From the NCBI GenBank assembly GCA_051294375.1, contig JBJCIZ010000282.1, positions 1 to 64,000 of the forward strand: DNA of 64,000 nucleotides, read 5' to 3'. The notes below the pieces were generated by a model. That model was not told the DNA's origin, ran no database searches, and worked only from the letters and a program-made list of their open reading frames with translations. Shown here one piece after another: positions 20,916-45,405 of the stretch. Position 1 is the first letter of the stretch; each line of letters opens with the position of its first letter. Source of the DNA: Paraspadella gotoi. Lineage: Eukaryota; Animalia; Chaetognatha. The position numbers were made by a program, and so were the translations under genes.

Positions 20916-22433
20916 ACAATTTTTCCAATCGCAGCTTGTAAAAGATTTTATTTTTATTTGTATTAAAATTAAGATATAGCTTCTCATTAAAAAGTTTCTT
21001 TGAGTTCCCATTTTTATTATAGATTTAAAAAAAAAATTTTGAATTTCATCTTCAATATTATATACTGCAATATGTAAATTAGATTAAAGCATTTCTATAT
21101 ACTAATTTGGATATTATAATGAGTACTATAATCTCATTTGCATATTGCAGTAAATCATAATGAAGTGGAAATTCAAACAAAAAATACTTAAATCCAAATG
21201 TAATGAGAAAATATCAAAGCTATTTCAAGATGAGAAGCCATATCTAAATTTTTAACTTACTATGATCGCACACTTTTATAAAACTTCATCATAATTAATA
21301 ATAATTTTTATTTAAAAAAAAACGGTAAGTCCAGCCAAAACTATAAAAGCATAGTAGTTTTTATACAAAAAAGCGTGACGACGACGACGACTACAACTAC
21401 GTCACAAAGAAGCAATCCTAAAACATTATAAAGCCTGAACCGGCTTCGCCGGTCATGGCTCGATAAAAAAGAGCGTGACGCCGACGACGACGACGACGAC
21501 TACGTCACAAAGAAGCTCACCCGAAACAAAATCAAGCCTGAACCGGCTTCGCCGGTCATGGCTCGATAAAAAGAAAGAAATCAAAAGGCAGCAGCAGAAG
21601 CAGTAGGAGAAAAGAGAGAAAAAGAAAGAGCCCCTGCAGAGCCAGCTGCAGAGAAAGAAATCAAAAGGCAGCAGCAGAAGCAGCAGGAGAAAAGAGAGAA
21701 AAAGAATAAGCCCCTGCAGAGCCAGCTGCAGACTCGTTTTTTTCCCTATGATTATGAATCGGTGAATAGGGAAAAAAGAGAGGGAGAGATAAATGTAATT
21801 AAAAGAGAAAAGAGAGAGAGAGAGAAATATGAAAATAAAATAGAGAAAATTTGTTTGTTTTGATAAAACGTAAACAAAACATATTTAATAACTGTCCAGA
21901 CTCAATTTTAAGCACATCGGTGATGAGAAGCTGTATATAAATTTTCAACTTCATAAACCCAAATTTAATCATAAAAAAGGCGATCTATAATTTGGAACGC
22001 CGACGACAACGACGCCACTTATGGGCAAAAGCGTTACAATATCCTCGCAAACGCTAAGCGTTTGCGACGATAAAAACCAAGCAGATCCTGTCAGAATCAT
22101 CCCAAAACTGATGGATCTTAAAATAAAACCACCATCATTCCACCAAAACCTAACAACCAGATACAACCAGCTAAACCCATTGGCAAAACCTAGAAGGCAC
22201 ACTCCAAACAAATGGGCAGATTAAATTCCTTTCATCACAATCACTACTGGATGACAAAACAATACCTCCCATGGTGGACTTCAACTTCTCCACAGCCTTT
22301 TTATCCACACCTGAGGTGGACCTATGAGCTTGACAAGGGGCCAATATACACACATAGAAGATGGATGAATAGAGACTTGGGAAAAAAGAACACACTCGAC
22401 CAATTCTCAGATGACACGAGAAGGTCTCGCAAT

Positions 22434-22744
22434 GGGAGGGGGGGTGACAATGCAGAGAATGGATTATCAAGTGACTTGTCTCTCTTGGCTTCTCCGTCGT
22501 TTCTTCTGATTGACCAATCAGAGAGGAGGCTTCCCTCAGGAAACCAACGGCAGAGAAACGAGAGAGGGAACAAGAAACTAACATCAAACTCCTTATGGAC
22601 TATTTGTTATATTGTTTATTGCCTGCCTTTTCTCTGCATAATCTACATATTTTGTATGTTAATTATCATCATCCCAACATGTTCTTATGTCAATAAAACT
22701 CCTCTTATTTCTCCCTTAATAAACTACGCCTACCTCCTTCGTTG
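22434..22744 (+). mobile_element. PPT + LTR (family D, 3' copy)
   Basis: GGGAGGGGGGG tract followed by ~300 bp homologous to 10420-10751, containing AATAAA. Confidence 0.65.
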
Positions 22745-22989
22745 CTATGATTTGTAATGAAAATAACTTCAATACTCATTTCGTCTTGTTTCAGCAATTA
22801 ATTATAAAATTAACTGATTATAAAAATGAATTTTAAATATTTAAAAAGCAGAAATCAAAAAAGGATCGTCGCTGCCGGGGTTTTAGGTAAGAGGGAGGGG
22901 GAGAAAGAGAGAGACAAAGAGAGAGATAAAATTAGGTGGGCAGAAGGAGGAAATAGATTAAAGCAGAGCTGTGGCAAAAACTGGAAAAA

Positions 22990-23020
22990 GGCGTGGGTTC
23001 GAATCACACCACTGCCACCA
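22990..23020 (-). promoter_or_regulatory. tRNA-Leu primer-binding site of a further LTR relic (family C; LTR ~23021-23995, split by the TRIM)
   Basis: Plus strand GGCGTGGGTTCGAATCACACCACTGCCACCA matches the 3' 31 nt of eukaryotic tRNA-Leu including CCA; no 5' tRNA half is present. Confidence 0.78.
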
Positions 23021-23211
23021 CATTTCAGTAAGTAAACAGGGAATTCTGGACGAAATCGAAATGTATTTATTGGAGAGAAAATGTACATTAAAAACGGTGT
23101 CAATTTTTGGACAGATTGATTCGACATTGAAAACAAGGGGTATTTAATATTTATACAATGGAACCGGATCGGCGACTCGGGAGGATTTCGTCGCCGGATG
23201 GAAGCTCGGCT

Positions 23212-23904
23212 TGTAGTCGGGCATTGCCTAGGTTCACCCCGCCTAGAATCATTTGACACTTCAGTTGTGACCCGGTGGCTCATTGAGTAAAGCCATCAGC
23301 TCATGACCACTAGGTACCGGGTTCAATCCCAACTCGGTACCTACCCTGCGGGAAGCGTGAGGACGGCCGTAAGCCGCCTTGGGGGCATGGCAAACCCTCA
23401 AGCCTGGTTCCAAGCCCAGGGACCCGTTCCATGGCTGCTAGAGGGGGTTAGAGAAGTTACGGACAGTCATCTTCAGCCCACGTAGCGCCTTATCCACACT
23501 GGTGAGCCCATCCTGTCGAGCGTATTCCAACCTTCTGATTCCAGGCCCTTGGTCTAGCTGAAGATTGCTCCCCTCCCTCCACTGGAAGCAGTGCAGGGTG
23601 GGTTACAATCTGGGGGGCATGTAGTCGGGCATTGCCTAGGTTCACCCCGCCTAGAATCATGACACTTTCAGTTGTGACCCGGTGGCTCATTGAGTAAAGC
23701 CATCAGCTCATGACCACTAGGTACCGGGTTCAATCCCAACTCGTACCTACCCTGCGGGAAGCGTGAGGACGGCCGTAAGCCGCCTTGGGGGCATGGCAAA
23801 CCCTCAAGCCTGGTTCCAAGCCCAGGGACCCGTTCCATGGCTGCTAGAGGGGGTTAGAGAAGTTACGGACAGTCATCTTCAGCCCACGTAGCGCCTTATC
23901 CACA
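23212..23904 (+). mobile_element. TRIM (miniature LTR retroelement) with tRNA-like A/B boxes in its terminal repeats
   Basis: Direct repeats 23212-23498 and 23620-23904, each TG...CA; 121-bp core with TGGTGAGCCCA PBS and G6 PPT; 4-bp TSD GGCT. Confidence 0.9.
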
Positions 23905-25137
23905 GGCTGACCATTGGCTGTTGCCATTTGTTATTCCAGCAATGAGAGAGTTCGAATCTTCTCACGTCGTCGGTCTGATTCCGGTTTCCTCTGTGATGAG
24001 AGAGAAAAAAAAATTAAATTATACTAATACAAACGGTTTCTAAATATATTCTAACTTTAAAGGCTAAATAATTTATTAAAAAAAAAAAAAAAAGAAATAT
24101 TAGAGCTGGACAAAACTACTGTATTGATATGATATATATTGCTAATATGATCCTTTAGACGTTCCCTTTTTAGTTTTACCCCTTGAAAAAGTCTTTCTGG
24201 TGATAAAAACTGTTGGTAATTAACCATCATCAACCTGAGCTTTAATACTGGGAGTCTGGGACTTCTATCTGGAGTGATACGAAAAGACTTGATTAAACTT
24301 AGCTTAAAAATTATATATATTGAAAGAATTACAACATTTATTTGTAAACTACTTGACTTTTACAAGGTTCCATGAATTTGTTGAAACTGTGTTTATAAAT
24401 CTCTTGATCAAAGGTAGGGTATTGCACAAAATTTTTAAAAATACTGATCGAAAAATAATAGGGGAATTTCATTTCAAAAAAACAAGGCTTTTTGAAATAT
24501 TTACTGTATGGAAAATACTAAAAGAAAAATTTTATTTTTAAATATAGGTACTGTAAGGGTAAGTCTAACTAAAAACCGAAAAAGAATCTTTCAAATAAGA
24601 AAAATATTGGAATAGTACAGAAGCAATATTTATTTTTATTGTTTTGCGCAAAAACTAGGCTTTCCTCGCAAAACCTCTGGTTACAGGAGATGCAAATGGG
24701 TTTTTCTTTCAACATATTGATCATTATATTGATTCCCCAAAAATGATGCGCAAAAAATGCGCCAGCAGCAGTTCTGGCGATAGTCATTTTATATCATCTT
24801 TCCTATTGTATATTAAGGCCTATGAATCATCAATATGTATGAAACTGATATAATATATTTATTATGATCTTAAATTTATCATGCCTTTTTTCTGCCTACA
24901 ACAATTCCTCCTTTGCTAAATATACATGATACCTATAATTATTATAATGGGTAATATCTTTATTCATAGTCTTTTTTTTTAACTAAGTTCAAATATAAAC
25001 CTAAAGGACCATTGTTGATCCACAATTTCTGATACTTTTAATACAATTGGTCCACTGATTTTACGTGGTATATCTTTGTTTCTTTTTATCTATGATTTGA
25101 GTTTTATTTCGGTATTCGTTTTTTTCTTTGATTTTAA

Positions 25138-26788: not shown

Positions 26789-29700
26789 ATCAGTATTTTT
26801 AAAAATTTTGTGCATATACCCTACCAGTTTAAACAAATTCATGGAACCTTGTAAAGTCAAGTAGTTTACAAATAAATGTTGTAATTCTTTCAATATATAT
26901 AATTTTTAAGCTAAGTTTAATCAAGTCTTTTCGTATCACTCCAGATAGAAGTCCCAGACTCCCAGTATTAAAGCTCAGGTTGATGATGGTTAATTACCAA
27001 CAGTTTTTATCACCAGAAAGACTTTTTCAAGGGGTAAAACTAAAAAGGGAACGTCTAAAGGATCATATTAGCAATATATATCATATCAATACAGTAGTTT
27101 TGTCCAGCTCTTAATATTTCTTTTTTTTTTTTTTTAATAAATTATTTAGCCTTTAAAGTTAGAATATATTTAGAACCGTTTGTATTAGTATAATTTAATT
27201 TTTTTTTCTCTCTCATCACAGAGGAAACCGGAATCAGACCGACGACGTGAGAAGATTCGAACTCTCTCATTGCTGGAATAACAAATGGCAACAGCCAATG
27301 GTCAGCCTGTGGATAAGGCGCTACGTGGGCTGAAGATGACTGTCCGTAACTTCTCTAACCCCCTCCTAGCAGCCACGGAACGGGTCCCTGGGCTTGGAAC
27401 CAGGCTTGAGGGTTTGCCATGCCCCCAAGGCGGCTTACGGCCGTCCTCACGCTTCCCGCAGGGTAGGTACCGAGTTGGGATTGAACCCGGTACCTAGTGG
27501 TCATGAGCTGATGGCTTTACTCAATGAGCCACCGGGTCACAACTGAAAGTGTCATGATTCTAGCGGGGTGAACCTAGGCAATGCCCGACTACATGCCCCC
27601 CAGATTGTAACCCACCTGCACTGCTTCCAGTGAGGGAGGGGAGCAATCTTTCAGCTAGACCAAGGGCCTGGAATCAGAAGGTTGGAATACGCTCGACAGG
27701 ATGGGCTCACCAGTGTGATAAGGCGCTACGTGGGCTGAAGATGACTGTCCGTAACTTCTCTAACCCCCTCTAGCAGCCATGGAACGGGTCCCTGGGCTTG
27801 GAACCAGGCTTGAGGGTTTGCCATGCCCCCAAGGCGGCTTACGGCCGTCCTCACGCTTCCCGCAGGGTAGGTACCGAGTTGGGATTGAACCCGGTACCTA
27901 GTGGTCATGAGCTGATGGCTTTACTCAATGAGCCACCGGGTCACAACTGAAGTGTCATGATTCTAGGCGGGGTGAACCTAGGCAATGCCCGACTACAAGC
28001 CGAGCTTCCATCGCGCACGAAATCCTCCCGAGTCGCCGATCCGGTTCCATTGTATAAATATTAAATACCCTTGTTTTCAATGTCGAATCAATCTGTCCAA
28101 AAATTGACACCGTTTTTTTAATGTACATTTTCTCTCCAATAAATACATTTCGATTTCGTCCAGAATTCCCTGTTTACTTACTGAAATGTGGTGGCAGTGG
28201 TGTGATTCGAACCCACGCCTTTTTCCAGTTTTTTTTGCCACAGCTCTGCTTTAATCTATTTCCTCCTTCTGCCCACCTAATTTTATCTCTCTCTTTGTCT
28301 CTCTCTTTCTCCCCCTCCCTCTTACCTAAAACCCCGGCAGCGACGATCCTTTTTTGATTTCTGCTTTTTTAAATATTTAAAATTCATTTTTATAATCAGT
28401 TAATTTTATAATTAATTGCTGAAACAAGACGAAATGAGTATTGAAGTTATTTTCATTACAAATCATAGCAACGAAGGAGGTAGGCGTAGTTTTTATAAGG
28501 GAGAAATAAGAGGAGTTTTATTGACATAAGAACATGTTGGGATATGATAATTAACATAACAAAATATGTAGATTATGCAGAGAAAAGCAGGCAATAAACA
28601 ATATAACAAATAGTCCATAAGGAGTTTGATGTTAGTTCTTGTTCCCTCTCTCGTTTCTCTGCCGTTGGTTTCTGAGGAAGCCTCCTCTCTGATTGGTCAA
28701 TCAGAAGAAACGACGGAGAAGCCAAGAGACAAGTCACTTGATAATCCATTCTCTGCATTGTCACCCCCTCCCATTGCGAAGACCTTCTCTGTCATCTGAG
28801 AATTGGTCGAGTGTGTTCTTTTTTCCAAGTCTCTATTCATCCATCTTCTATGTGTGTTATATTGGCCCCTTGTCAAGCTCATAGGTCCACCTCAGGTGTG
28901 GATAAAAAGGCTGTGGAGAAGTTGAAGTCCACCATGGGAGTATTGTTTTGTCATCCAGTAGTGATTGTGATGAAAGGAATTTAATCTGCCCATTTGTTTG
29001 GAGTGTGCCTTCTAGGTTTTGCCAATGGTTTAGCTGGATGTATCTGGTTGTTAGGTTTTGGTGGAATGATGGTGGTTTTATTTAAGATCCATCAGTTTTG
29101 GGATGATTCTGACAGGAATCTGCTTGTTTTTTCGTCGCAAACGCTTAGCGTTTGCGAGGATATTGTAACGCTTTTGCCCATAAGTGGCGTCGTTGTCGTC
29201 CGCGTTCCAAATTATAGATCGCCTTTTTTATGATTAAATTTGGGTTTATGAAGTTGGAAAATTTATATACAGCTTCTCATCACCGATGTGCTTAAATTGA
29301 GTCTGGACAGTTATTAAATATGTTTTGTTTACGTTTTATCAAAACAAACAAATTTTCTCTATTTTATTTTCATATTTCTCTCTCTCTCTCTTTTCTCTTT
29401 TAATTACATTTATCTCTCCCTCCTTTTTTCCCTATTCACCGATTCATAATCATAGGGAAAAAACGAGTCTGCAGCTGGCTCTGCAGGGGCTTTATTCTTT
29501 TCTCTCTTTTCTCCTGCTGCTTCTGCTGCTGCCTTTTGATTTCTTTCTCTGCAGCTGGCTCTGCAGGGGCTCTTTCTTTTTCTCTTTTTCTCCTACTGCT
29601 TCTGCTGCTGCTTTTGATTCTTTCTTTTATCGAGCCATGACCGGCGAAGCCGGTTCAGGCTTGATTTTGTTTTCGGGTGTGAGCTTCTTGTGACGTAGTC

Positions 29701-32700
29701 GTCGTGTCGTCGTCGTCGGGCGTCACGCTCTTTTTTATCGAGCCATGACCGGCGAAGCCGGTTCAGGCTTTATAATGTTTTAGGATTGCTTCTTTGTGAC
29801 GTAGTTGTAGTCGTCGTCGTCGTCACGCTTTTTTGTATAAAAACTACTATGCTTTTATAGTTTTGCTGGACTTACCGTTTTTTTTTAAATAAAAATTATT
29901 ATATTATTATGATGAAGTTATAAAAGTGTGCGATCATAGTAAGTTAAAAATTTAGATATGGCTTCTTCATCTTGAAATACTTTGATATTTTCTCATTACA
30001 TTTGGATTTAAGTATTTTTGTTTGAATTTCCACTTCATTATGATTTACTGCAAATATGCAAATGAGATTATAGTACTCATTATACATATCCCAAATTAGT
30101 ATATAGAAATGCTTTAATCTAATTTACATATTGCAGTATATTAATATTGAAGATGAAATTCAAAATTTTTTTTTTAAATCTATAATAAAAATGGGGAACT
30201 CAAAGAAACTTTTTAATGAGAAGCTATATCTAATTTTAATACAAATAAAATAAAATCTTTTACAAGCTGCGATTGGAAAATTGTCGCCGACGACGACGAC
30301 CCCGTCAGCCCCGGGCGCCAGGCTGAACTGCGCTTCGCCACAGCCGCCTCAACAGCTGCCGCCTAGGCAAGAAGACGAGGAGCTCGTCTACAACACTGCC
30401 ATCGGCGCCTCCCTAGACTTCGACGCCCAGGACCTCGAGCGGAGCTGGAGCAGCCTCTGACCGCGACCCGCACTTACTCCCGCTCAGGGCTGACTTAAAG
30501 AAATGGCAACAAAGCAACGATGACATCAAATCGGTCGCGGCGATCCTCACCATGGAACCGACGCCGTCAAGATCCACTTCGCGTCCATCAAAGCGAAGTT
30601 GTTAACAAAGACGCAAGCATTTCTCTTCGTGGTAGCTGACGACTTGTCCACCTTGGACGATGGAATCCTCTGCGTGATAGGGTTCCGGATGAAACAAGGA
30701 CTTCGCGTTTCATCGTCCCTCCTGAACACTTAGAGGAAATCATCCGCCTAATCCACGACCGCCGTTGACCACCCCGGCCGCGACAGAACCGCGTATATCA
30801 TTGCACAGTATGTAGCAGCACCTGCCTAGTCGCGGCTTGCTCGAAAATAGTGCTCGAGTGCGAAACTTGCCGGAAAGCGACGGATAAATGAGATTCAGCG
30901 AGACGGAATCAGGACCGACACGCGCTAATCCCGTGGGAGTTGCTGTGCATAAGACGTTATGCACTTACCTCAAGCGGCGGCTTTCAATCGTTTGGTTGCC
31001 TCTGACAACGCCTCCGCCTACACGTGGCCGATCCAATTCGCCGCACAGACGCAAACCATATTATCACTGCCGCTTGACAAACAATTTTTAGCCTTCACGG
31101 TTCGTACCTCGAGATAAACTTTGACGGCCGGACTTCGCTAAATGGTGAAGAATTCGAAGCAACCTGACTTACTGGATATGAGCGGGAAACGGCGGATATG
31201 TCATCTCCCAAATCCTCCGCCCCGCGGGGTGGTTCTAGGGGCGGCCCAGGGGGCAGACTATTCCAGGGGGAGCAGCAAAATGGTCATTGAGGGGGCGCCC
31301 TAATAGACCCAAAATGTTTGCCCCAGGGGGAACCCCCTGGGCGGCCCCCTGGAGCCAAAAAAGTCTGCCCTGGGGTAACCCCTTGGGGAGCAAAAAAGTG
31401 CTCCCCCTGGGGCGAGTTAAGAGAGAGCAAAGTTTAGATAAAAAATATACTTTTCTGACAATGTTATTGTATCTGAGAATCTCTCCCTGTCTGTTACTCT
31501 CTCTTTTCTCTCTTTCTCTCTTTCTCTTTCTCTCTCACTTTCTCTCCTCTCTTCTCTCTTTCTTTACTCTCTCTCTCTTTTTTGTCTTTTTTTTTCTTTC
31601 TTTTTTCTTTTTCTCTTTCTTTCTCTCTCTCTATCTTTTTCTCTCTCTCTATCTTTCAAGACTTGTTTTATGTAACTAAAAAAAAAATATACATTTTTTT
31701 CAAATTATTGTTAACTCGTTTATTCCATATTTTATCTAAAAATTATAATATTTGTATTTTTTAACTTAATTATTTTATTTCAATTAAAAGATATAGAAAC
31801 AATTTGAGCAAACAATGTATGACATGGCCACAATATTTAGTGGTTAAGAAGCTAATCAGTCATCTGTCTTTTTTTTTCTTTTCCTTTTTCTCTTTTTTTC
31901 TTTTTTTTGATGGACAAACTGATGACTGATAGAGAGAGACATAATTTTTAAAAAAAATTTCTAATTTATTAAATAAATCATAAATAAACAAATAATGGGC
32001 AAGTAATCGACAGACCTACTTAGTAGAGTGATATGAAAAATAATAAAATTTTGGGGAAATTAAAATTTAGCATATAAAACATGAACATAAAACTAATTAA
32101 AAATATTTGGTAAATTTATTTTTAATTTATACATTATCGGCACCAGTGAGCTATATTTATATATAGTAATAAGTATATAATAGCTAAAATTTCAAAATAC
32201 AAATTTTTTAAATTTTAAGAATCGGATTTGGATCTTTGCAAAAAGTTATTACAAAAGAAAGTACAATCTTTTTTAAAAATTCTTTCATTAAGTTAATCAA
32301 AATATAAAAAACTATATTTAAGACGCCGATTTTGAATTTCCAGCCTTTAAAATATAGTTTTTATAATTTTAACTTAATAAATGACATCATATTTGAAAAA
32401 GATTTATACTTCTTCATATTATTTACTTTTAACAAGGAACCTGAATCTGTTCTCAGAATTTTAAAAAAACTATTTTGAAATTTTTGACATTATTATAAGG
32501 TAGTACTATATACAAATAAGCTGACTGGGCAATTATATTTATAAAAAAAAGAAAATAAACAACAGATTAGTATTCACTAATATGATAGTTTTCAAGATAT
32601 AACTGCTAAATTTTTGATTCCAAACTTTCACTTCACCCTACTACTTACGTGAATTATGGAGTCCCAAAAACTATTCAGTTCAAGATTTTAATTCATGATC

Positions 32701-33632: not shown

Positions 33633-33887
33633 CTCTTTCTCTTTTTTNNNNNNNNNNNNNNNNNNNNNNNNNGCCGATAGAAAAATAAAAATTTCGTCGA
33701 ATACTGCTAATCGCTATCAAAGGCAGCAAAACTTATATCCTTAGAACTTAATGCTTCTGGTTCACATTGAAGTTTACCTGCAACTTCTGATTCAAATTTT
33801 CTCCTATCTTTTACGCTAAATTGTATACAATCACCAAGAAAAATCTTCGGTAAAAGATTCAGATTGAATCTTTTTTGATTTTGATAT

Positions 33888-34247
33888 CTTTGCCGTTTTG
33901 TACTATTTTTGGCGAATAAAATATCACGATCGAAAATAGAGGCAAACAGAGTTTATTTAATTATTTACAATTTAAGCGCAGTCACAAAATCTAAGCTAGA
34001 AATTATTGTACAACCATTCGGGCCGAGGGCAGCTTCACTTCTGAAATCATAGTCTCTCCTTCCTATTCCCTCGGCCCATGAAACGTCCCCTTTGCCCTAG
34101 TCCCACTCGAAGCCCTATGATTTGCTATGACGTTTGTGCACGATCGAATGAGAGAGAGGGAGAGAGTGAGAGGGGGGAAAGGGGAGAGAGAGAGAGAGAG
34201 AGATAGGGTTGATCTGAAAGGGGAGGCGGATCCCGTATCCGCTGACG
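33888..34247 (-). repeat. 3' LTR of family A
   Basis: Direct repeat of 43909-44268, preceded on the minus strand by a G-rich tract. Confidence 0.97.
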
Positions 34248-34263
34248 CGCCCCCCCGCCGCCC
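34248..34263 (-). promoter_or_regulatory. Polypurine-tract-like G-rich plus-strand primer site
   Basis: Minus strand GGGCGGCGGGGGGGCG immediately upstream of the 3' LTR; the same motif is at 62951 in the sister copy. Confidence 0.75.
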
Positions 34264-34302
34264 ATGACGAGGAGCCAGGTCTTAGAATGGCGTCGAGTCT
34301 TC

Positions 34303-36160
34303 CTAGCGCCCCGAGGTTCGTCCGATGGCGGCGTCGACGTTTCTCCCGATCGCTTCCGCTTGGCAGCAGCCGCAGCAAACGCACAGCGCGACCACGCCTC
34401 CAATGGCGACGATGCCCATGAGGGGGGCCAGGTTCACCAACCAGTTCCAGATTTCAATTAGCGAGGAATCACCGAATATCCGCCGGATAAACGATGACGG
34501 CCATCCGGCGGTGATCTCGCCTAGGCGTTTGTTGAACCTCTGGGTTTGCCCGATGAACTTGGCATGGCGGTCCATGAATTGGTCTACCTCTTCGTAGATC
34601 GAGAACTTGCTGGTCACGTGGTGCTGGGCGTCCGGAAGCGTGGTTCTGAGCGTCTGGTACTTCTCGAACGGGTTTCCGTCGTTGTCTACGAATTTGTTTC
34701 CTTGTTGGTAAACCGGGGGAGGCGAGCAAGGCGTTTCGAAAGAAGAGTCGATCACGTGATGATATATGGCGTGGCGATACGCCTTGCGTCCCCCGAACAT
34801 TATGGGCAGATCCTGGAAACATTCCTGGTTTCCCGTCGAAGAGCGAGCGTTTGTCGGCATCTCGCGGTGACCAACAATTCTCCACGGAGGACGGCGATTT
34901 TGCCGCGGTCGACAAAAGCGGTGGCCGCTGGCGAGCGATGTGCTTCGATCGCCGCTGTCCTCGCCTCGCAAGCTCGTGTCACGCAGAGCTTGTGCCGTAC
35001 GGCCTTGGTGAGAGAGTCAATGTTTTTCTGGTTGTCTTGCGCGAGCTTCGATGCAGTCTCATGGAGCGCCTCCATCACCGAGGTGTCTCGCTTCAGGCCT
35101 TGGATCCGGCCCTCCGTATAGAAGAAATGTGGTGAGGACGTTTCGTCCACCACCAATCCGCAACTGGAGATTCTCGTCTTCTTTCCGGTTAATCTGAGAG
35201 TGAAGGCGGCGTCACTGGTGCCGCCACACATGACATCACCTCTATAACCCTGGCGGTATCCGGATACCTAGCCTCCGAACAACTCGTCCAACATTCTCCA
35301 AATCGATCCGCTCCCTTCAGCAGATCCCCGCACAGGGTTGGAGCTCCATTTGCGTTGTGGCATCGGTTGATCGCCTTCCGGATGTCGGCTTCGGAGACCG
35401 CCCTTATGATTCCATCCTGGGACCGATACATCCCTCCGGTATATCCGACCACGGCACGGCATCGGGCATCGTCCCACACGACGATTCCGCCTGGATAATT
35501 ACACTGTTGCTTTGCTATATCGCAAGATCCCGCCTTTGAATCTACTCTGTCCGCCACCCTGACCTTTCTTTTGTACAGGGTGAGATTCGAGGCCAGCTTG
35601 GCGTTTTCGGAGGTATACAACCGCCCATGGAACTTCAGCGACTCGCCTGTGCAGCTGCCGTCCGTGTCCATTGTTCCTACTTGATGAGATATCAAATTGG
35701 TTCCTTCCTTTCCTTTGATTTGTATGGGTTGAAGGACGCCGGCTTTGTCGCTCATGAGTATCGGGATCTTGCTCAGCGTGATTCTTTTTCCGGCGTGCAG
35801 ATCTAAACATTCCTGCCTCTCTAGGCTGAAGTGGTAGATGGCATCTATGTTCGGGTATTGGATGCTCCACCTACCGCAGAGGCGTCCGGTGGCGATGATG
35901 ACGAGGTCACATCCATACCCGTCGTGTTCCATGGTGTCTGGGTGGAATATCAGGTGAGCCGTGCGCAATTCCTCTTTGACTTTGTTTGCCTTTTCGCATT
36001 CTCTTTCATCTAATGCAATAGCCGTGTGGTCGGATGTGGTGTTGCAGTCGTAGACCTCTATCCTTTGTTTGAGTATTCCATGCCCGTTTTCTCCGACGAG
36101 CATGGTTCCGGCGGTTACCGTGGCTACCGTGAGGATCAACACGATCGTTTCGGTCTGCAT
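34303..36160 (-). pseudogene. env: Envelope-like glycoprotein (~620 aa reconstructed, 2 frameshifts), chuvirus/class III fusion-like
   Basis: Signal peptide MQTETIVLILTVATVTA; VYDC...C...GCDLVIIATGRLCGRWS...ECLDLHAG...GTMDTDGSCTG; C-terminal TM segment LMGIVAIGGVVAL followed by CVCCGCC; lies between pol and the 3' LTR. Confidence 0.88.
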
Positions 36161-36832
36161 TCTGTTTGGGTTTAATACTGCTTCTTTTATTTTTTAGCCT
36201 TTGTTTGATCTTTATAAGGTCTTTTGTTTCCTTTTCTTTATCCTTTAGTTTTCCTCTTTACACTTACTTGGGTTTGCTCGTGTTTCCTTTTTCTTCTTTA
36301 AAAACAAAAGATCGTTTCGTTTTTTTTCTATTTTTTTTCTCTCGAGTCTTACTTGTTTTGTCGAAAATAGTTTCGAGTGGTTTTGAGCGCTCTACGCTCT
36401 GTTCGCTCCTTTCTCAGGCGCTCGTGACTCGTCGTTCGTTCTATCGTCGTCTCGAGCGTCTGGTCTGCCCCCTTCCTCCTCCGGGCGATCGTAGCGCGAT
36501 CGGCCGGCTTTTTCCCGGTGAGTTGGGTTGAGGAAGAAGTAGGGCTCTCTGTCTGTTCTGGCCTATTTCGCTTTGGATTTATCTTTCTTTCCTTTCTTTT
36601 TGCTTTGTTACTTTGTTTAGCTATATTTCTTTTTGATTTTTACCTTGAAGTTGTCTTCGTACTATGTTCTTTTCTTTTGGATTTATGAGTTAGTCATAAC
36701 ACCTTGCTCTTTCTTTCGGTCTCTCATTACTCTCTTCAATCACTTTTGGAATGTGTTATCGTTTACAAAATATTTACAAATTTACATAGGACCTTTTCAT
36801 TTTCTTGAACTTATGTCCTGAAATCTCTGAGT

Positions 36833-37782
36833 CACCGCCTTTCAATTTGAGGCGGCGTCTGTGATAGAGTGAGCGTTTGCCGTTGACGTTTTACTACGTA
36901 ATGGTTGCCTCTTGCTTCGATCACCTTGTGCGGTCCTGTGTACATCGTTTTCACCTTTGTTTTGTGTTGGTGCGGCGCCTGTTCTTAATAAATCGTGCCT
37001 TACGTAGACGTCGTCGCCTGGTTTGACTTTCTTTGGATTTCTGAACCGGTTTCCTCTTTTTTGCTTGCCTATGTTTGAGGAATCTTTGTTCGACAATTTG
37101 TTTCTGAGCTTCTTGCTGGTTGTCCGCTCTTCTTTGTGCGTAATCCGCTAGGCATTCGTACAACTCTTCGTCCGGCGCTTCTATCAGTCTTGCCTGTTTC
37201 CGAACTGGAGTTCGTGAGGTGACATGTTTGTTTTCCAGCCTGTTATGGGCGTCACGTTTAAGGTAAGCATTAAGTAAGGCAGTGCCTTGATCCATTTGTT
37301 TGGATCATCGTTTAGGGATTTCCTCAACGCTTGCCTGATCCGGCCGATGTCTCTTTCGGCCCGGTTACTATTCTTTCTTGAAACTAGGATTCGTCCTCCG
37401 CTCATTTCCTCACCATTCAGCGACGTGGCGCCATCGAAGTTTATTTCTAGATAGTTTCCGTATAGCAGGAATATGTTTGCGTCGAGGGCCTTGATTACGT
37501 GTTGTGCGTCAGCGCGCCTTAGTGGAATCGCCCAGGTGTAGGCAGAGGCGTTGTCCGAGGCCACTAGGACGTGATTGCAACCCCCACTGGGAGGTAAGTG
37601 CATGACGTCGATGCTTAGTGATTCCCAGGGGACTCGCGCTGCCGTTGGTCTCGATTCAGTTTCGTTGAATTGCATCGTCGGTGGCGCGCCTACAGCGGTC
37701 GCACTCGAGTACCATTTCTCCGCATGAGTTTACCATATTTGGGGCCGCTATGTATTGTGCTGCCAGGTAAGCTGAACGGTCT
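36833..37782 (-). pseudogene. pol: Integrase (HHCC, DDE core, GPY/F-like tail), frameshifted
   Basis: PWESLSIDVMHLP, INFDGATS, NSNRAERDIG, SPHELQFG; ECDRC zinc-finger cysteines near 37700; YTGPHKV near 36930. Confidence 0.93.
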
Positions 37783-38664
37783 CTACCTGGGTGGCCAAGC
37801 TTTTCGTGTATTTTCCTCACTACCTCCTTCAGGTTCTGCTACAGAATAATATATCTCGTTGAGCGACTTGTGGCGGTGAATCCGATAACGCAAAGGATTC
37901 CATCTTTGGTTCTCTAAGTCATCTACATTTCGGAGGAGGAATGCTTGTGTAGGCGTAAGTGATTTCCTCTTCCCCGCTTCGAGGTGTGTTCTGAGGCCTC
38001 TTGCGCCATGGTTTTTGTATATTTCTCTGGCGTCTTTGATCTCGCTGCATTCGTTTTGCCAGATCTTTATCTCTGCTCTCATCGGCATCAGTGAGGAGTC
38101 ACGCTTGATGTTGTTTAGTAAATCCTCTTCGAGGTCGATTTCGTCCACCTCAACCGAAGCTTCGATGGCCGAATCTGTGGTTATCTCCGTATTTTGATTC
38201 GCTTCAGCTTCCCTACCTTTGTGAGTGGGTCTTGGCTCCTGGAATGTAGGCTCGGGTGAGTTTCGGCTTTCACCTATTTTGTTTGTTTCCGGTCTGGTTT
38301 CGGATCCGGCTGGTTGTTCGTGTTCGGTTCTGTCGGGCGAATTGGGTGGGCCCGCTATCCTCTCTGGTGGCTGGTCGTCTTGGGATGGGGGTCCCGCTCC
38401 TCTTTGCTCGTATGGTTCTGGTGCGTTGCTCTTTTGTCCTCTTTGGCTTTGGCCATCGGGGCCTGCTTCTGTTATTTCGGAATTTGGCGGTGCCGCCTCA
38501 TCTCTGTCCACCTCGGTTGGCGTTTCCAATGGCGGCCCCGGCGTTCTTCTCCGATTCTGATTTACAGGCCCCGTGTGGAGGTTGTGGTTTATTCTTATGG
38601 TGTTGGTGGGAAGCATTGATGACGGTCTCATTATCGGTGCCGGTGCGATTCTGGCTCTGGGCAC
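37783..38664 (-). CDS. pol: Low-complexity Pro/Glu/Gln linker and pre-integrase region of pol
   Basis: About 170 aa of disordered-looking sequence, then IKIWQ...LTPTQAFLLRNVDDL, homologous to family B LKKWQ...LTKTQAFLFVVADDL. Confidence 0.75.
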   Translation of the reverse strand: MPRARIAPAPIMRPSSMLPTNTIRINHNLHTGPVNQNRRRTPGPPLETPTEVDRDEAAPPNSEITEAGPDGQSQRGQKSNAPEPYEQRGAGPPSQDDQPPERIAGPPNSPDRTEHEQPAGSETRPETNKIGESRNSPEPTFQEPRPTHKGREAEANQNTEITTDSAIEASVEVDEIDLEEDLLNNIKRDSSLMPMRAEIKIWQNECSEIKDAREIYKNHGARGLRTHLEAGKRKSLTPTQAFLLRNVDDLENQRWNPLRYRIHRHKSLNEIYYSVAEPEGGSEENTRKAWPPR

Positions 38665-39190
38665 TCGTCTGCGGTAGGCTCTTTCCTCTTCGATCCTGTG
38701 TTCCAGCCCATGTTTAATATTTCGTCATTAGTGCACGGTCCGTCTACCAGCTGTCTAATGGCTCTGATCCTTCTTTCGGTGTCGCTGATCAATGATGCTT
38801 GGCCTGTGGCTGTTCTGAAGATTCTTATTTCTCTTTCTTTTCCTCCGCCATATACCTTTTCGTATTTACAGCCGGCTTGTGAGGTGCTGTCATCGTCTAA
38901 TATTTTTATGCAAATCCCTGTCATTTCCGCTAGTGCTTCTAGTTCAGGGTGGCCCAGTGACCAGTCTTTCGATGAAATCGTTCTGATGAATGTGCAGGCG
39001 TCTTTTGTTTTCGGCGTGCCATATAGTTTTCTTATGTTCGCCCTCTGGCGAGTAAAATGGTTCTTCATAAACTCGAAGAATTTTGTTCGAAAACTTTTCT
39101 CATCAATGTTTAGTGCATCGGCTATAATTCCGAGTATTGGGGCTCCGCCTACTCCAGGTGGCCTGGCCACGACCTGCCTGACAAGGGTTC
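38631..39190 (-). CDS. OTU-like (putative pseudo-deubiquitinase) domain inserted in pol
   Basis: PPGVGGAPILGIIADAL...FRTKFFEFMKNH...DWSLGHPELEALAEMTGICIKIL...IRIFRTATGQASLI follows OTU motif spacing; catalytic Cys and His appear substituted. Recognised by eye only. Confidence 0.6.
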
Positions 39191-40447
39191 TTCAGTGAAT
39201 CCTGGTTCGTAACTGCCGTTGATGTCGGACCCTGCGGCTAGGAAAGGCGTGTCGAGCGGTGTGATTTGGTTTTGGTCTGTAAACTGTAAATCTAAGAAGT
39301 CTGCTGGATTGTCGCCACTTTTTACCAGGATAATTTCAGAGGGGTGACATTCCTGTCGTATCTCCGTTATCCAGTGTAGTACGTTTGTCGGGAGCAGCTG
39401 CTGTTTGTCGTGTTGCTGGTCCATTACTCTTTTGAAGTACTGTGAGTCTGTTACTAGGCTAACCTTTCTTCCACAGATGTAACCTTTGAATTTTCTCACC
39501 ATCATATTAAAAGCGAGCGTTTCTAGGATGTTGATATGTTTTATTCTATATTCTTCAGGAAATGATTTCGAGTGGAAGCTGAGGGGGTACTCGGTTCCGT
39601 TTGTGGTTGCAGTGATTAGGCCCCCCATAGCGCTTGTACTTGCATCGGCGTATATTTTGTATTCGCCATTTTTGATTTTTGCATCATTTAGGAAATTTAG
39701 TCCTGGCGTTGATTTAATTTCCTCCACTAGTGTTTCTAGAGCCTTCCTGTGTTCGTTCTTGAACTCAAAGTCTTTCCTGTCAACTAGGGTTAGTGCATGG
39801 AGTGGTTGTGCCAGATACGAAAACCGGTGCGTGAAGCACCTGTAGTAGTTTAGCGATGCTAGCAGCGCGCGCAGTTCCTTCTGCGTCTTAATTTCTTTCA
39901 GTCTCAGTTCGACTTGTTCTAACTTCTCTTTTTGTGGTTTTAGCTTATCTTTCGAGATGCTGAAGCCAAGGATCTTGATGTCGTCCTTCCTTAGGAGGAC
40001 GCTTTTCGTCCACTTGAGGACCACATTTTCTTTTCTGCAAATCTCGAGGAATTCTCTGTCTGCCATCTCCTCAGGTGACTTCGCTGTAAGGATCAGGTCG
40101 TCTACGTAGATGAGGAAGCTTTTGACGTCTCTTCCTAATTCTGCGAAGATCTCATCGAGTATTGCCTGTAGCACGTTTATGCTGTTTACTCCCCCCATCG
40201 AGAGTTTGTTCATTTTCCAGTTGTGACCCGCGCCTGCGAAGGTGGTTACAGGCTTGCATCTGTCCGTTAATTTTACTTGATGGAAGCAGGCAAGAATATC
40301 TACTGAGCATTGGAGCTCGTGAGGTTTATATTGCTCTAGGATGGATGCAATTGTTTGTGGCTCAGTGGCAAAGGTTGATATGTTTTTATTTACCGCTGAG
40401 AGGTCGCATATAAGGCGCCATTGCTTGGCGAATGTTTCATCGTCCAT
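39149..40447 (-). CDS. pol: Reverse transcriptase + RNase H (Ty3/Gypsy type)
   Basis: WRLICDLSAVNK, SVDILACFHQV, LSMGGVNS, IYVDDL; RNase H motifs IYADAS, PLSFHSK, INILETLA, LVTDSQ, NPADFL. Confidence 0.97.
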   Translation of the reverse strand: MDDETFAKQWRLICDLSAVNKNISTFATEPQTIASILEQYKPHELQCSVDILACFHQVKLTDRCKPVTTFAGAGHNWKMNKLSMGGVNSINVLQAILDEIFAELGRDVKSFLIYVDDLILTAKSPEEMADREFLEICRKENVVLKWTKSVLLRKDDIKILGFSISKDKLKPQKEKLEQVELRLKEIKTQKELRALLASLNYYRCFTHRFSYLAQPLHALTLVDRKDFEFKNEHRKALETLVEEIKSTPGLNFLNDAKIKNGEYKIYADASTSAMGGLITATTNGTEYPLSFHSKSFPEEYRIKHINILETLAFNMMVRKFKGYICGRKVSLVTDSQYFKRVMDQQHDKQQLLPTNVLHWITEIRQECHPSEIILVKSGDNPADFLDLQFTDQNQITPLDTPFLAAGSDINGSYEPGFTEEPLSGRSWPGHLE

Positions 40448-40576
40448 TTCGTTTTGTCCTTCTTTGATGTGGTTTGGCTTCTTTATAAGGAAGGCATTCG
40501 AGTAAGCTTCGCCTGTCGTTCTGGAGACGCCTGCTTGTTCGTATACCTCCAGGTATCTCTTTATCTCTTTATCTCT

Positions 40577-42286
40577 TTATCTCTTTACTGGACCTTGGTT
40601 CATGAATCTCGGCTTGGTTAGGTTGTTTGTCGTGAAGCCTAGGTCGACCTTGTAATTTAGGAAACCTTCTTTACAATCGTTTATCGATTCGCCGAATACA
40701 TCCCTGTATTCCCAGAACCACGTTAGCACCTCCTCCGGCTTTCTCGCTGAGGGATGGTCTATTTCTTGGAACGGCTTTAGGAAGGCCTCGCGACCTCTGT
40801 CGTCATGTTTTTGTCTCCTGCTTCTAGCTTTATCTGCCTGTTCGATCTCCTCCTTTGAGGGTACATGCCTTATAATCGTTGTCGGAGGGATTTCCGTTCC
40901 ACATGCTTTTCGCAGTCGGGGTTCTGTTCCCGTGAAGTCGGCGTCCACAGGTCTGCCCGCGCAGTGCGGTTTTAAGCCCAACTCTCTGGCTGCGTTCTCT
41001 GCGATGATTATCCTGGCTGATCCCCAAGTGCCAGGTTTTCCGGGGAGATCTACTCCTTCTTTTAGGTCGTTCCCCGTCACGGTTACTGCTGTTTTTCCAT
41101 CTGTTGATTCCATTAGCCACTTCGAATTGGCTAGAGATTTCCAGTACGTGCGGGCTGCTCTGACCTTGGCGCCCGCGATGCCATTTGTTTCGGCATACAG
41201 GGGGATTTCTGTTTTGTCGTCTACATATTGTCTGGCCAGCCATCTGGCGGCCCTGAGGGCGCTCTGCTTTTTTTTGAAAAGGTGGGTGACTGGTTTGCCA
41301 TTCATATGAGCTACCTGGGTGTCATCCTTGTCGTTCGGAGTCACTACCCACATTTCGTTGCTGGGCCCGGGGTCGGTTGTCGCGGTGCCTAGGATGACGT
41401 CCCTGTCTTCTGCATCGGGTGAGATGAAGAATACTGTGTCCAGGATCCAGTTCTGGAACATCACTCTCAAGTTTAGCCTTTCTCTTATAGTAATCGGTCC
41501 GTTTCCTGTTGTTACTCTTAGTGGGGTTCCGCTATATATCTTATTCATCAGCGACCATTCGTATACGAATTTTCTTGGTATCATGTTTATGGAGGCGCCA
41601 GTGTCGTGTAGGCAACTGGCCGGGGCTCCATTTATTACTGCTGGGATGTAATTGTTTCCCGCGTGCCTGAAGCCTTTACCCGTATCGTCCCTCGGTTTTG
41701 GACCATTTGTTTTACCTGTTGGACGAGGCGCCTCTGGCGGCGAGTCGGGTAAGCGCGGGGGCATTTGTTCATCCCTTCTAGATTTCTCCTTTGTGACGGG
41801 CAGCGTGAGCGTTTTGGGTTCGTGGCATAGGCGTTCGATCCTCCTGATCGTCTCCTGATGCAGGGACTCGCCCTGGTTTGTTCCAACGATTGTGTAAGTC
41901 GGGTTGTAAATCATTCTTCTTGACCTTATTCCACTGAATTCCACGAAAGTTCTGAGTCTTGCTTTGGCTTTGTTTTGCCTTGGTCTAACTGCCTCGTCCT
42001 GCGGAGGTGTTGGCGGCGGAGGCGGCGTTTCCTTCGGCCTGCCGTTTTCACGGTTCGCCGCCTTCTTGCAGAGTTTTTCGCATGCTTTTAAGCGTTTTAC
42101 ATGTGCGAATTTGTCCTTCATGGAGAAACTTTTCCATGGGACCTCAGATTCCTTAACTATGGCCGTGGCTAACAGGTGTCTGTCTCGAACCCCTAGTGGG
42201 GCGAATAACTTGTAGTCTAGCTGCTGCGTCTTTGCCCCTGAATTTGATCGCTGTCTTGGCGCAGTCGGCGAATTTTGCCAGGGCAT
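40577..42286 (-). CDS. pol: Gag C-terminus / retropepsin aspartic protease / start of RT region (frameshifted at both ends)
   Basis: YIPAVINGAPASCLHDTGASINMIP (DTG active site) and downstream DVILG motif; EYRDVF pre-RT motif. Confidence 0.92.
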   Translation of the reverse strand: MPWQNSPTAPRQRSNSGAKTQQLDYKLFAPLGVRDRHLLATAIVKESEVPWKSFSMKDKFAHVKRLKACEKLCKKAANRENGRPKETPPPPPTPPQDEAVRPRQNKAKARLRTFVEFSGIRSRRMIYNPTYTIVGTNQGESLHQETIRRIERLCHEPKTLTLPVTKEKSRRDEQMPPRLPDSPPEAPRPTGKTNGPKPRDDTGKGFRHAGNNYIPAVINGAPASCLHDTGASINMIPRKFVYEWSLMNKIYSGTPLRVTTGNGPITIRERLNLRVMFQNWILDTVFFISPDAEDRDVILGTATTDPGPSNEMWVVTPNDKDDTQVAHMNGKPVTHLFKKKQSALRAARWLARQYVDDKTEIPLYAETNGIAGAKVRAARTYWKSLANSKWLMESTDGKTAVTVTGNDLKEGVDLPGKPGTWGSARIIIAENAARELGLKPHCAGRPVDADFTGTEPRLRKACGTEIPPTTIIRHVPSKEEIEQADKARSRRQKHDDRGREAFLKPFQEIDHPSARKPEEVLTWFWEYRDVFGESINDCKEGFLNYKVDLGFTTNNLTKPRFMNQGPVKR

Positions 42287-43745
42287 CAGACGGTTGCCAT
42301 TTCTTTGCGGCGTTTTTGATTCTGTCAGCGGCGTCGTTTGCTAGCATTGCCGCTTTGGCCCTTTCCGGGGGATTTCCTTTTTCTGACTTTGGGCATGGTA
42401 ATAATAAGTAATTGTAATTTTCGAAAGCTTTATTGGTGCTTTGGACATCATCTAATTTGTCAGTTACAATTGCGTCTCTGCGCCTAAATTCAAATTTATC
42501 CCGTCGGAAATTTCTGTCCGTGCGGGCTTGCCTGCCTTGCCAGCGTTTGTCGTTCCCCCCATCGCGCCTGTCGCGCCACTCGGGGCGTCTCGTGTCTCTA
42601 GGCTGGCGTCCTCTCCATCTTCCGTCGTCCTTCTTGGTTTTGACGGCCCTTTGGATCGCCGACATGCTTTTGGTGAGCTTCTCCATGAGTTCACGCGTGT
42701 TGTTTGCTTCTTGCATCATTGCGCCTTGGTAGAGGGCGTTCGCGCTTTCGGCAGGGTTTTTGTCGCTCAGACCCTTCTATAGGAGCGAGTCCGTGAGGAT
42801 TTGACGATCGTTGTCCTTCACGGAATTTATGAAGCGACGAGCAGTGCCCTCCGATTTATATCCATACGTTTCCAGCCATCCTCGTAGGATCCACTCTATT
42901 TCTTTCCCTAATTCCCGGCGGTTTCCCGTGTCGATAAGTTTCCTGAATTTGAGGACTTCCCTCGATATACCCGGGGCGTACGGGTCCAATGCTTTAGTCA
43001 GCAGACGGGCTACGTGGCGTGAGACTGCGTCTCTCTCCTCCGGTGCGACGCAGTCGAACTTTTTGTAGATTGAATTGACGAGCGGGAGTCCGTATTCGGA
43101 GTGTTCCTTTGGGTCCATTTTCACCACTATCTTCTCGGCTATCTCCGCAGTCGTGACTGACGATTCCTTGCACATCGATTCGAGGCCTTTCCATAGGCTG
43201 CCGCCTATGGGGTCGACATACCAATTCGCCTCTTCGTCGCGGGCGAGGACGGCCTGTAGTTGCTCGTTTACTCGTCTCTCGTCGAAGTCGCAGTTCTTAA
43301 GGTTCCTGTAGATGCCGCGCAGGAATTCCATTGGCTTCTCTCCTTCGCGTCGCCTATCCATTTTTACTGGTGCGCGTGAGAGCGGGTTGGCCGAAATTGA
43401 GCGCGGAGCCGGTTGTCTGGCGTTTCCTCCGTTGGATGCGCTTCTTCGGCGGTCCTCGGGAGAGTAGGCGTCCGGACCCTCCTCTCTCGGCGTTGTGGCC
43501 AGTTCCTCCACTGCTTGTGCCAGGTCGGCCATCTTTCGGGCGAGGGCCCTGGTTTCGGCGGCTGCTTGGCGGGATTCGGTCCTGCCGTCGTAATAGACGA
43601 CCATTCCGGTTCATCTATCCAAGTAGGCTCCTACCATGCCCTGCATGGCGTCTGATGGTTTCTCTCCGGCCGGTGCAGTGGGTTGCAGCGGCGGTATCGA
43701 TTCTTTGCTTGCCCCCTTCTCACCTATGCCAAGTAGTTTTGCCAT
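42153..43745 (-). pseudogene. gag: Gag-like ORF1, interrupted by in-frame TGA (43611-13) and TAG (42777-79)
   Basis: First ORF after the PBS; ORFs 42777-43604 and 42153-42719 are in the same frame; Arg-rich basic block (RWRGRQPRDTRRPEWRDRR), no CCHC knuckle. Called mainly by position. Confidence 0.75.
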
Positions 43746-43886
43746 GTCTAAGATGGAGCGAGACTTGGTTTTTGGCTCAATCTTGTCAGGTGAGAGGGCC
43801 CAAATGGTTTGCGCTTGTTTTAGGTTTGCGTTGGTCGAGCGTCTCTTCGGTTCCTTTTTGCATGGTTTGTTTTATTTCTTTAATTC

Positions 43887-43908
43887 TCGAATCTCGTCGG
43901 TGACACCA
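43887..43908 (-). promoter_or_regulatory. Primer-binding site of family A (primer tRNA not assigned)
   Basis: Minus strand TGGTGTCACCGACGAGATTCGA follows the LTR directly; its complement reads like a tRNA 3' end (TCGAATC...ACCA). Confidence 0.85.
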
Positions 43909-44268
43909 CTTTGCCGTTTTGTACTATTTTTGGCGAATAAAATATCATGATCGAAAATAGAGGCAAACAGAGTTTATTTAATTATTTACAATTTAAGCGC
44001 AGTCACAAAATCTAAGCTAGAAATTATTGTACAACCATTCGGGCCGAGGGCAGCTTCACTTCTGAAATCATAGTCTCTCCTTCCTATTCCCTCGGCCCAT
44101 GAAACGTCCCCTTTGCCCTAGTCCCACTCGAAGCCCTATGATTTGCTATGACGTTTGTGCACGATCGAATGAGAGAGAGGGAGAGAGTGAGAGGGGGGAA
44201 AGGGGAGAGAGAGAGAGAGAGAGATAGGGTTGATCTGAAAGGGGAGGCGGATCCCGTATCCGCTGACG
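43909..44268 (-). repeat. 5' LTR of family A
   Basis: Matches 33888-34247 except one C/T (33927 vs 43948); contains a (CT)n tract and AATAAA on the minus strand; directly abuts the PBS. Confidence 0.97.
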
Positions 44269-45405
44269 ATATGGTTCATAAAAATTCAAATTTTACATAG
44301 TAAAAGTCAGTTATCAAATTTAAAATGATACACATAAAACGTCAATGACTTTTCTAACTAATAAAATAAATCATTCTAAAATTCTAAATACATACAGAAA
44401 TGGGAGCGATTTTATTAATGCCATCCTTTCTGAGTCAAGGGGTAAATGGAAAACATGATTATGATCAAGTATTATTCAATATTCATATTATGAACAAATT
44501 TGTTTAATTATGGTTCATGATACATTTAATACAGTCCATTAATAAAAAAAAGTATGAAAAAAAAGTAATCGTTTTAATAGGATCAATAGTAAAGTCCTGT
44601 ACCAAAGTAAAAATTCTACTTCTTCAGAAATTTACCCTCTAAGAAAAATAGTTATTATATAATAGAATATTTATTTTATATCCTAGCTAGAATTGGTGTA
44701 AAACTAAAGTCAAGTATTTTTCTATTAGTATAAACAAATCTTATAATGCGATTTTATTCGAATACAACGAGATTGATTCAGTGCAATCATCATTAACAAA
44801 CAAACAAACAAACAATATAACCGGATTGCTCTTGGTTTCGATTATATTACAAGTTTTTTGTATCAATCCAGATTGAAGTCCCTGTACAATGTACATTGTA
44901 CAATGTACACACATTGTACACTTTGTACACACATTGTACAGTGAACATAATACATAGTGCCGCCACACAACCCGCAGGTTTAATGTTATACGTCGTCTAC
45001 TTTATGAGCCGATGCAGAGGCAATGATGAGAATTCATCGGTCCCAGAAGGTATAATCATCAGAGCTAACGAAGGTGATAAATATTGATTGATTGATCCAG
45101 TAACTGAGAAATAGTGACAAAGAACATTAGAAAAAGAGAGATATTGAAGAATTAATAATATAAGTTAAACGCTAGAGCGTTGAAAAATAACAAAATATAA
45201 CAAATCAAGTAAGGTACATAGTAGAGTGATGTGAAAATGATAAAATTTTAGAAAATTAAAATTTAGCATATAAAACATGAAAATAAAAACTAATACAAAT
45301 ACTTTGGTAAATTTATTTTTAAATTTTATACATTAGTGGCCAAGAGTGAACGATATTTATATATAGTAATAAGTATATTATAAGCTAAAATTTCAAAATA
45401 CAAAT

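Follow-up and report, generated by a model that had tools for sequence, protein, structure and literature searches.

A predicted catalytically dead OTU-like domain behind RNase H in the pol gene of an env-carrying Ty3/gypsy-type element from the chaetognath Paraspadella gotoi

What separates RNase H from integrase in a retroelement of Paraspadella gotoi, and what could it do there? The window, that is, the whole 64,000-nucleotide stretch analysed (contig JBJCIZ010000282.1, positions 1 to 64,000), had received a preliminary description in which about 350 extra residues were noted at this place and the first ~150, thought to be folded, were likened to an OTU deubiquitinase with its catalytic Cys and His replaced. 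The strings on which this likeness was based are all present in an ORF of 186 aa (38631-39191, minus strand), which is indeed flanked by the RT-RNase H frame (39149-40576) on one side and by the integrase core (37184-37729) on the other, and the estimate of extra residues was close, since about 360 codons separate the end of RNase H (~39299) from the helical pre-integrase part (38211). The reading favoured below, with a probability of about 0.5, is that an OTU-fold domain behind RNase H, predicted to be catalytically dead, is attached to the reverse transcriptase as a non-enzymatic appendage for binding or scaffolding and not as a protease.

The element and its place among retroelements

The segment is enclosed in a 10.4-kb LTR element on the minus strand (33884-44272, including the duplications), composed as follows.

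33884..33887 and 44269-44272, no strand: target-site duplication ATAT (left and right copies), flanking both LTRs
33888..34247, minus strand: 3′ LTR, 360 bp, with termini CG...AG on the minus strand and a G-rich tract just internal
34303..36193, minus strand: env-like gene for a chuvirus/Monjiviricetes-type fusion glycoprotein, in three frames, broken (Pfam PF24664)
36842..37729, minus strand: core and C-terminal part of integrase, spread over three frames and broken (Pfam rve, E 6.7e-4)
37783..38724, minus strand: Pro-rich low-complexity linker, then helical pre-integrase segment (no Pfam match)
38778..39152, minus strand: predicted pseudo-OTU domain, 125 aa, placed by predicted fold and alignment to relatives
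39150..39155, minus strand: break from the RNase H frame to the pseudo-OTU frame in the window copy, placed by the relatives' frame matches and by contigs
39153..39298, minus strand: conserved linker between RNase H and pseudo-OTU, 32-45% identical to five relatives
39299..40576, minus strand: reverse transcriptase (YVDD) and RNase H (Pfam RVT_1, E 7e-13; RT_RNaseH, E 7e-12)
40577..42340, minus strand: N-terminal pol frame with aspartyl protease (DTGA; Pfam Asp_protease_2, E 1e-7)
42153..43610, minus strand: putative gag, assigned from position, with an in-frame stop near 42777
43891..43908, minus strand: primer-binding-site-like sequence, beginning TGG and abutting the 5′ LTR
43909..44268, minus strand: 5′ LTR, 360 bp, from the LTR comparison

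The LTRs, the target-site duplication, the primer-binding site, the order protease-RT-RNase H-integrase and the env gene identify an env-carrying Ty3/gypsy-type element. RNase H ends at the motif NPAD, about 39299, inside a longer open frame, and the integrase core contains candidate D, D and E motifs; the integrase region as a whole matches related fragments elsewhere in the window. Three env pieces match PF24664 with E values of 2e-7 (29.8 bits, cut-off 27), 3.4e-4 and 0.092, and this glycoprotein presumably corresponds to the HSV/gB env type of the errantivirus survey considered further on. Pfam gave nothing informative for the putative gag, and a scan of the whole window for tRNA and Rfam families returned zero matches. 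The copy is disrupted by several frame shifts and one stop, and its host is AT-rich in base composition.

The reverse transcriptase is 21-26% identical to its 13 long matches, most of which carry gypsy-type Pfam domains and two of which are named Tf2/gypsy-like. The LTR termini are non-canonical (CG...AG on the minus strand in place of TG...CA, with the ATAT duplication); given these ends and the distance of the reverse transcriptase from its nearest long matches, the lineage may be poorly sampled. Troyka elements share the CG start of the LTR and an LTR length of 100-400 bp, but are described with CG...CG termini, a 3-bp duplication and no env (PMC12440569), whereas the element has CG...AG termini, a 4-bp duplication and env, and membership was rejected on these three grounds. 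Another named element, Anakin, carries a chuvirus env (PMC7642597).

Several further features of the window were recorded. A short tandem repeat of TATCTCTT-like units occupies 40562-40592, at the break between the protease and RT frames. Related broken pieces lie at 15315-17587, 20039-20899, 30548-31155 and 62642-63531 and include env (34-86% identical), integrase and one 84% LTR, and the OTU-like part is absent from all of them. Two stretches (19683-24448 and 26789-31500, where the compared stretch ended) are inverted duplicates of each other, 97% identical over at least 4.8 kb. Each arm contains integrase fragments from a related element, and the arrangement may represent either a foldback structure or a feature of the assembly.

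Relatives, reading frame and selection

A sequence search of 1.84 billion representatives (E 0.001 or better) with the domain returned eight matches, one of which (P0019), a WD40 protein, was dropped as false. A follow-up profile search gave 14 matches, 10 of them new, and brought the running total to 17 relatives. Every relative is a fragment, on contigs of 0.6-2.7 kb, and other genomic copies were sampled solely as short sequencing contigs. A full-length intact pol containing the domain was found neither in the representative search nor in the search of long proteins (0 of 845 candidates, which is weak evidence), and a scan of viral contigs for the domain gave 0 of 98. A metagenome scan yielded, from 54 candidate stretches, one locus (L001) whose frames contained no retroelement and which was dropped.

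The relatives are 29-42% identical to the window copy in the domain, and the segment is thus kept in sister elements, where the preliminary description had allowed that it might prove absent or unconserved. In three relatives (P0016, P0024, P0028), the end of RNase H and the domain share one ORF, with 53-54 aa from the end of RNase H to the predicted Cys site; these three are 50-54% identical to the window copy in RNase H and 37-42% in the domain. On the other side, P0014 runs from the domain into the helical pre-integrase segment (38211-37915, minus strand; E 3.7e-5), with no convincing alignment over the intervening stretch. The same-ORF fusion, the fixed spacing and the continuity of P0014 indicate, at the level of sequence, that pol has the domain as a fixed component in no fewer than three subfamilies (35-45% identical).

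These relatives also correct the reading frame. In five of them the match to the RNase H frame runs to 39152-39155 and continues below in the OTU-like frame, and in four of the five this second match begins at 39152-39149; the first 13 codons of the ORF (RTLVRQVVARPPG, 39191-39153) are therefore out of frame. Among these codons is the 'PPG' formerly taken for the PG of the OTU Cys loop, an assignment that has to be given up, as it lies upstream of the real break near 39152. It is the G-G-A-P just after the break that aligns with the D-G-N-C of OTU proteins. Contigs from three studies, one of them possibly the source of the window, cross the break without a gap relative to the window copy, while other contigs vary in length there; an assembly error was rejected, as the contigs of all three studies span the break unchanged. 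The two LTRs are near-identical (359 of 360 bases, one mismatch), yet breaks are numerous in gag, pol and env; together with the presence of the break near 39152 in three studies, this suggests a defective template recently copied in trans. At the other end, the view that the first ~150 residues are folded holds in that a folded domain is predicted, but its length is about 125 aa, ending near 38778 (…GQASLISDT), and the remainder of the ORF beyond that position has no aligning relatives.

Host contigs (from 4 of 9 listed runs) were compared over 38770-39200 and contain 87 variable sites, the best-supported 40 of which were used. All but one of these 40 fall inside the domain frame; of the 39, 23 are third-position and 22 synonymous, and none, taken singly, creates a stop. 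The selection check proposed in the preliminary description gives a pN/pS of 0.22-0.31 depending on transition weight (p 3e-6 to 3e-4), a crude value from the best 40 of 87 sites that is below 1 and points to purifying selection on the domain in host-genome copies.

An OTU-type fold with a replaced active site

The fold of the domain was assessed by structure prediction. A template-free AlphaFold2 model built from 18 family sequences reaches a pLDDT of 82.5 and a pTM of 0.73. In a fold search of 48,161 representative chains, rows 1-32 are all OTU-type deubiquitinases or viral OTU-like proteases, a few of them classed as such by protein name. The best match, OTUD2, has a Z of 10.0 and an rmsd of 2.8 with 111 of 125 residues aligned, and the first match that is not a deubiquitinase has a Z of 3.4. 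Row 19 is FAM105A, an inactive OTU-fold protein. The top Z values lie within about 1.5 of each other across cellular and viral OTUs and single out no donor subfamily. In Foldseek, 36 of 36 listed PDB rows are OTU-type or titled deubiquitinase (best match OTUD1, E 1.2e-3, probability 1.00, TM 0.64, none reaching E 0.001), and nairovirus L proteins and giant-virus OTU proteins lead in the viral library, all above E 0.001. In the ESM Atlas, 17 of 30 matches fall in clusters with PF02338 (about 20% of members), the top score is 0.93 and the top match shares 182 features.

Sequence comparison gives a fainter signal. The Pfam OTU profile matches the window with E 0.017 and 0.0063 (16.1 and 17.4 bits) and matches weakly 6 of the 18 family members (best E 0.0012, 19.8 bits); the PF02338 gathering cut-off of 23.3 bits is reached by neither the window copy nor any relative. 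Sequence and profile searches of the PDB with the domain returned no OTU. In profile-profile comparison with 15 distinct viral OTU sequences, the domain aligned over almost its full length with nine masters, at probabilities of only 2-18%, and failed to align with the other six; for each of the two masters tested, the score exceeded that of all 40 column shuffles.

The likeness to OTU could accordingly be incidental or vestigial, the segment being an unrelated small alpha/beta domain or a functionless, decaying passenger. The sub-threshold Pfam scores, the identity of 10-17% to the best-matching solved OTUs and the several breaks in the window copy are compatible with this, as is the poor model obtained from the single sequence (pLDDT 40.6), with which a structure search found generic helical matches and no OTU. 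Profile HMM, language-model features and predicted structure, which are partly independent, nevertheless agree on one family, the score against viral OTUs stands above every column shuffle, and conservation near the level of RNase H with a pN/pS well under 1 argues against neutral decay. Such an explanation is improbable, and the model very probably reflects a true OTU fold, as first suspected.

The predicted fold and topology resemble those of OTU deubiquitinases (PF02338; OTUD1, OTUD2/yeast Otu1, nairovirus vOTU) across the domain, with Z values of 8-10; the register of helices and strands is alike, and a Trp and a Glu near the S1 site are kept. The domain differs from them at the predicted Cys, His, aromatic and Asp positions, which hold other residues throughout the family, and in being embedded in a retroelement pol. 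Residues 1..125 of the model span residues 36..158 of the CCHFV OTU (3pt2), whose triad is Cys40, His151 and Asp153 (PMC6357015). With ungapped ends, the predicted equivalents are Pro5, Gln118 and Ser120, in a register that is uncertain by one or two positions because the structure ranges give end residues only and some rows are offset by one. Profile alignments to viral OTUs place Pro5 at the Cys in four of the four shown, and Gln118 at the His in two of the four. Active OTUs are characterised by a His-aromatic-Asp/Asn/Glu motif (PMC7396840), in place of which the window copy has Gln-Ala-Ser.

The replacements extend to every relative that covers the sites. At the predicted Cys site (39140-39138, Pro in the window copy), the relatives have Pro (9/11) or Leu (2/11), and no Cys adjoins the site on either side, one relative having a Cys two positions upstream. 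The predicted His site (38801-38799, Gln in the window copy) is occupied by Ser (6/8) or Gln (2/8); the aromatic position after it by Val (7/9) or Cys (2/9), against Ala in the window copy; and the predicted Asp position by Ala (8/9) or Gly (1/9), against Ser. None of the relatives covering the Cys (11) or His (8) site restores the residue, and the predicted catalytic loss is, as judged from these alignments, old and family-wide; a recent loss in the window copy alone was rejected. Within the host, the changes that the commonest contigs have at the Pro codon are all synonymous; no change at the Gln codon is among the best 40 of the 87 variable sites. The replacement of Cys and His proposed at the outset is supported, and neither is intact in any relative that covers its predicted site.

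Other residues of the domain are strongly kept. A W-x-L-G-H-P-E motif at 38963-38943 has Trp64 in 12/12, Leu in 13/13, His68 in 13/13 and Glu70 in 11/13 relatives, and a conserved Arg adjoins the His strand. His68 (38951-38949) and Cys95 (38870-38868), the latter in a T-G-C-K-like turn in 11/12 relatives, are conserved away from the OTU catalytic positions and possibly form a metal site or a new dyad; a JGI subfamily has further Cys and His columns.

A rewired protease using His68 and Cys95, for instance as a second polyprotein protease, would fit their conservation, and viral OTU-like domains can process polyproteins, as in TYMV (PMC6357015), while OTU folds tolerate moved catalytic residues (PMC7396840). 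Since neither residue occupies an OTU catalytic position and the element already has an ordinary aspartyl protease, this alternative is highly improbable. The purifying selection across subfamilies that are 35-45% identical, despite the predicted loss of the active site, argues for a job other than ubiquitin cleavage.

Possible roles of the domain in pol

According to the favoured reading, that of a non-enzymatic appendage of the reverse transcriptase, an ancestor element would have acquired an OTU gene of cellular or viral origin or one borne by another transposon, and catalysis would have been lost before the sampled subfamilies split. After processing of the polyprotein the domain would remain on the RT-RNase H subunit. 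There the helix face of the W-x-L-G-H-P-E motif may bind a partner, which could be the RT/RNase H, Gag or nucleic acid of the element itself or else a protein of the host. Such binding would probably not involve threading of the ubiquitin C-terminal tail as in active OTUs.

That the domain remains with the RT subunit is suggested by its two linkers, the one to RNase H being short and conserved and the one to integrase long and variable. A hydrophobic-T-R/K-S/G/Q motif, which we take to mark the RT/IN junction, occurs after RNase H in 2 of 10 ordinary gypsy pols and after the domain in 5 of 12 relatives checked; it occurs between RNase H and the domain in 0 of the 3 relatives that cover this stretch, and is absent from the window copy. 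Its position gives a weak hint that the domain may stay with RT. The earlier proposal of an integrase tether is weakened: a conserved linker keeps the domain 53-54 residues behind RNase H, and a long Pro-rich stretch that aligns poorly sets it far from integrase.

A dead OTU could still read ubiquitin, as the preliminary description proposed, or a ubiquitin-like protein. Its targets, ubiquitinated host proteins or chromatin, would then be bound but not cut, and the domain would serve either to divert ubiquitin-based defence as a decoy or to target the reverse-transcription or integration complex. The predicted OTU fold and the retention of Trp64 and Glu70 accord with this idea, for in OTUs an aromatic residue holds the GlyGly tail and a Glu coordinates Arg74, S1 sites vary widely, and BurkOTU binds without cleavage (PMC7396840). 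Transposons have also captured deubiquitinase folds repeatedly, as in Ginger1 and Helitrons (PMC2836005, PMC6431247), and one gypsy pol, P0004, carries a UCH domain. The aromatic residue after the His site is gone, however, and an invariant Leu is inserted between the Trp and Gly of the motif. The sole universal need of S1 binding is described as contacts beside the active site (PMC7396840), and these are remodelled here; the domain is moreover distant from integrase in the polyprotein. In the ubiquitin-tail Trp/Glu motif both residues are mostly kept, the Leu is present and profile alignments disagree on the register of the Trp. Given these changes canonical binding of the ubiquitin tail seems doubtful, although the conserved Trp and Glu near the tail site could equally represent a retained ubiquitin contact. 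When the domain was modelled in complex with a ubiquitin taken from a viral contig, with the alignment left unused, the scores were 0.01 and 0.00 against a mark of 0.34, which weighs neither way.

Cellular pseudo-OTUs provide a comparison. Drosophila CG3251 and Otu have inactive OTU folds in which only the Cys is changed, to Ser, with His and Asp kept, and CG3251 has no detectable binding to ubiquitin chains (PMC4654579). In the domain, on the contrary, the whole predicted triad is replaced, and its gene resides in a mobile element. The remodelled active-site contacts and this non-binding cellular pseudo-OTU therefore favour the appendage over a reader or decoy, which is possible, though well short of an even prospect.

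Among mobile elements, Ginger1 transposases and Helitrons/Helentrons carry an OTU domain described as a cysteine protease (PMC2836005, PMC6431247). They resemble the present case in the fusion of OTU to a transposition protein, as here of an OTU-like domain to pol, and differ from it as DNA transposons: the element has LTRs and RT, on which grounds membership was rejected, and its domain is internal to pol and predicted to be dead. A close architectural parallel is with the 'errantiviruses' of a recent large structural survey, which share LTRs, PBS, gag-pol-env, the order PR-RT-RNase H-IN, a fusion-glycoprotein env and an extra bridge domain (PMC13524379). In its available text, the bridge between RNase H and integrase is assigned to pseudo-RNase H, 'mini' or a few outlier domains, whereas the first domain after RNase H is OTU-like here. 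Neither the main text of this survey nor its seven supplement files in text form, figures aside, contain the term 'OTU' (0 occurrences), in keeping with the earlier remark that this is not a standard Gypsy pol domain. An outlier bridge domain in its figures could be the same fold, unrecognised, and the helical segment at 38211-37915 may be the 'mini' domain of the errantivirus bridge. The literature searched, which was covered mostly by listings and left subscription papers largely outside, yielded no description of an LTR pol with an OTU domain; prior annotation in Repbase or Dfam, both outside the search, is possible.

The conserved pseudo-OTU in an env-carrying Ty3/gypsy pol is akin to kinds already known, namely transposon OTU domains, cellular pseudo-OTUs and accessory pol domains. 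Few accessory domains are listed for LTR-retroelement pol, and a pseudoenzyme derived from a deubiquitinase now joins them, in a bridge region described by the available text of the survey in RNase H-like terms only. It offers a natural example of the role of the OTU fold after catalysis is lost and a handle on why mobile elements repeatedly capture domains of the ubiquitin pathway, and the domain is small (125 aa), predicted to be well folded and expressible alone. That a captured deubiquitinase became a 'reader' of ubiquitin or ubiquitin-like proteins in the polymerase of an endogenous-retrovirus-like lineage is rather doubtful; if true, the reader would be the ubiquitin counterpart of the chromovirus chromodomain and would direct the replication or integration complex towards host proteins or chromatin that bear the mark, or hide these from defence based on ubiquitin.

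A further observation concerns P0004, known from one member sequence on two contigs. In this otherwise ordinary gypsy pol, protease and RT are separated by a full USP/UCH deubiquitinase domain (residues 237-502; PF00443, E 8.5e-36), in which Cys- and His-box-like motifs are visible. From its sequence, it may be a chimeric gene call or a second, independent and possibly active capture of a deubiquitinase in an LTR element.
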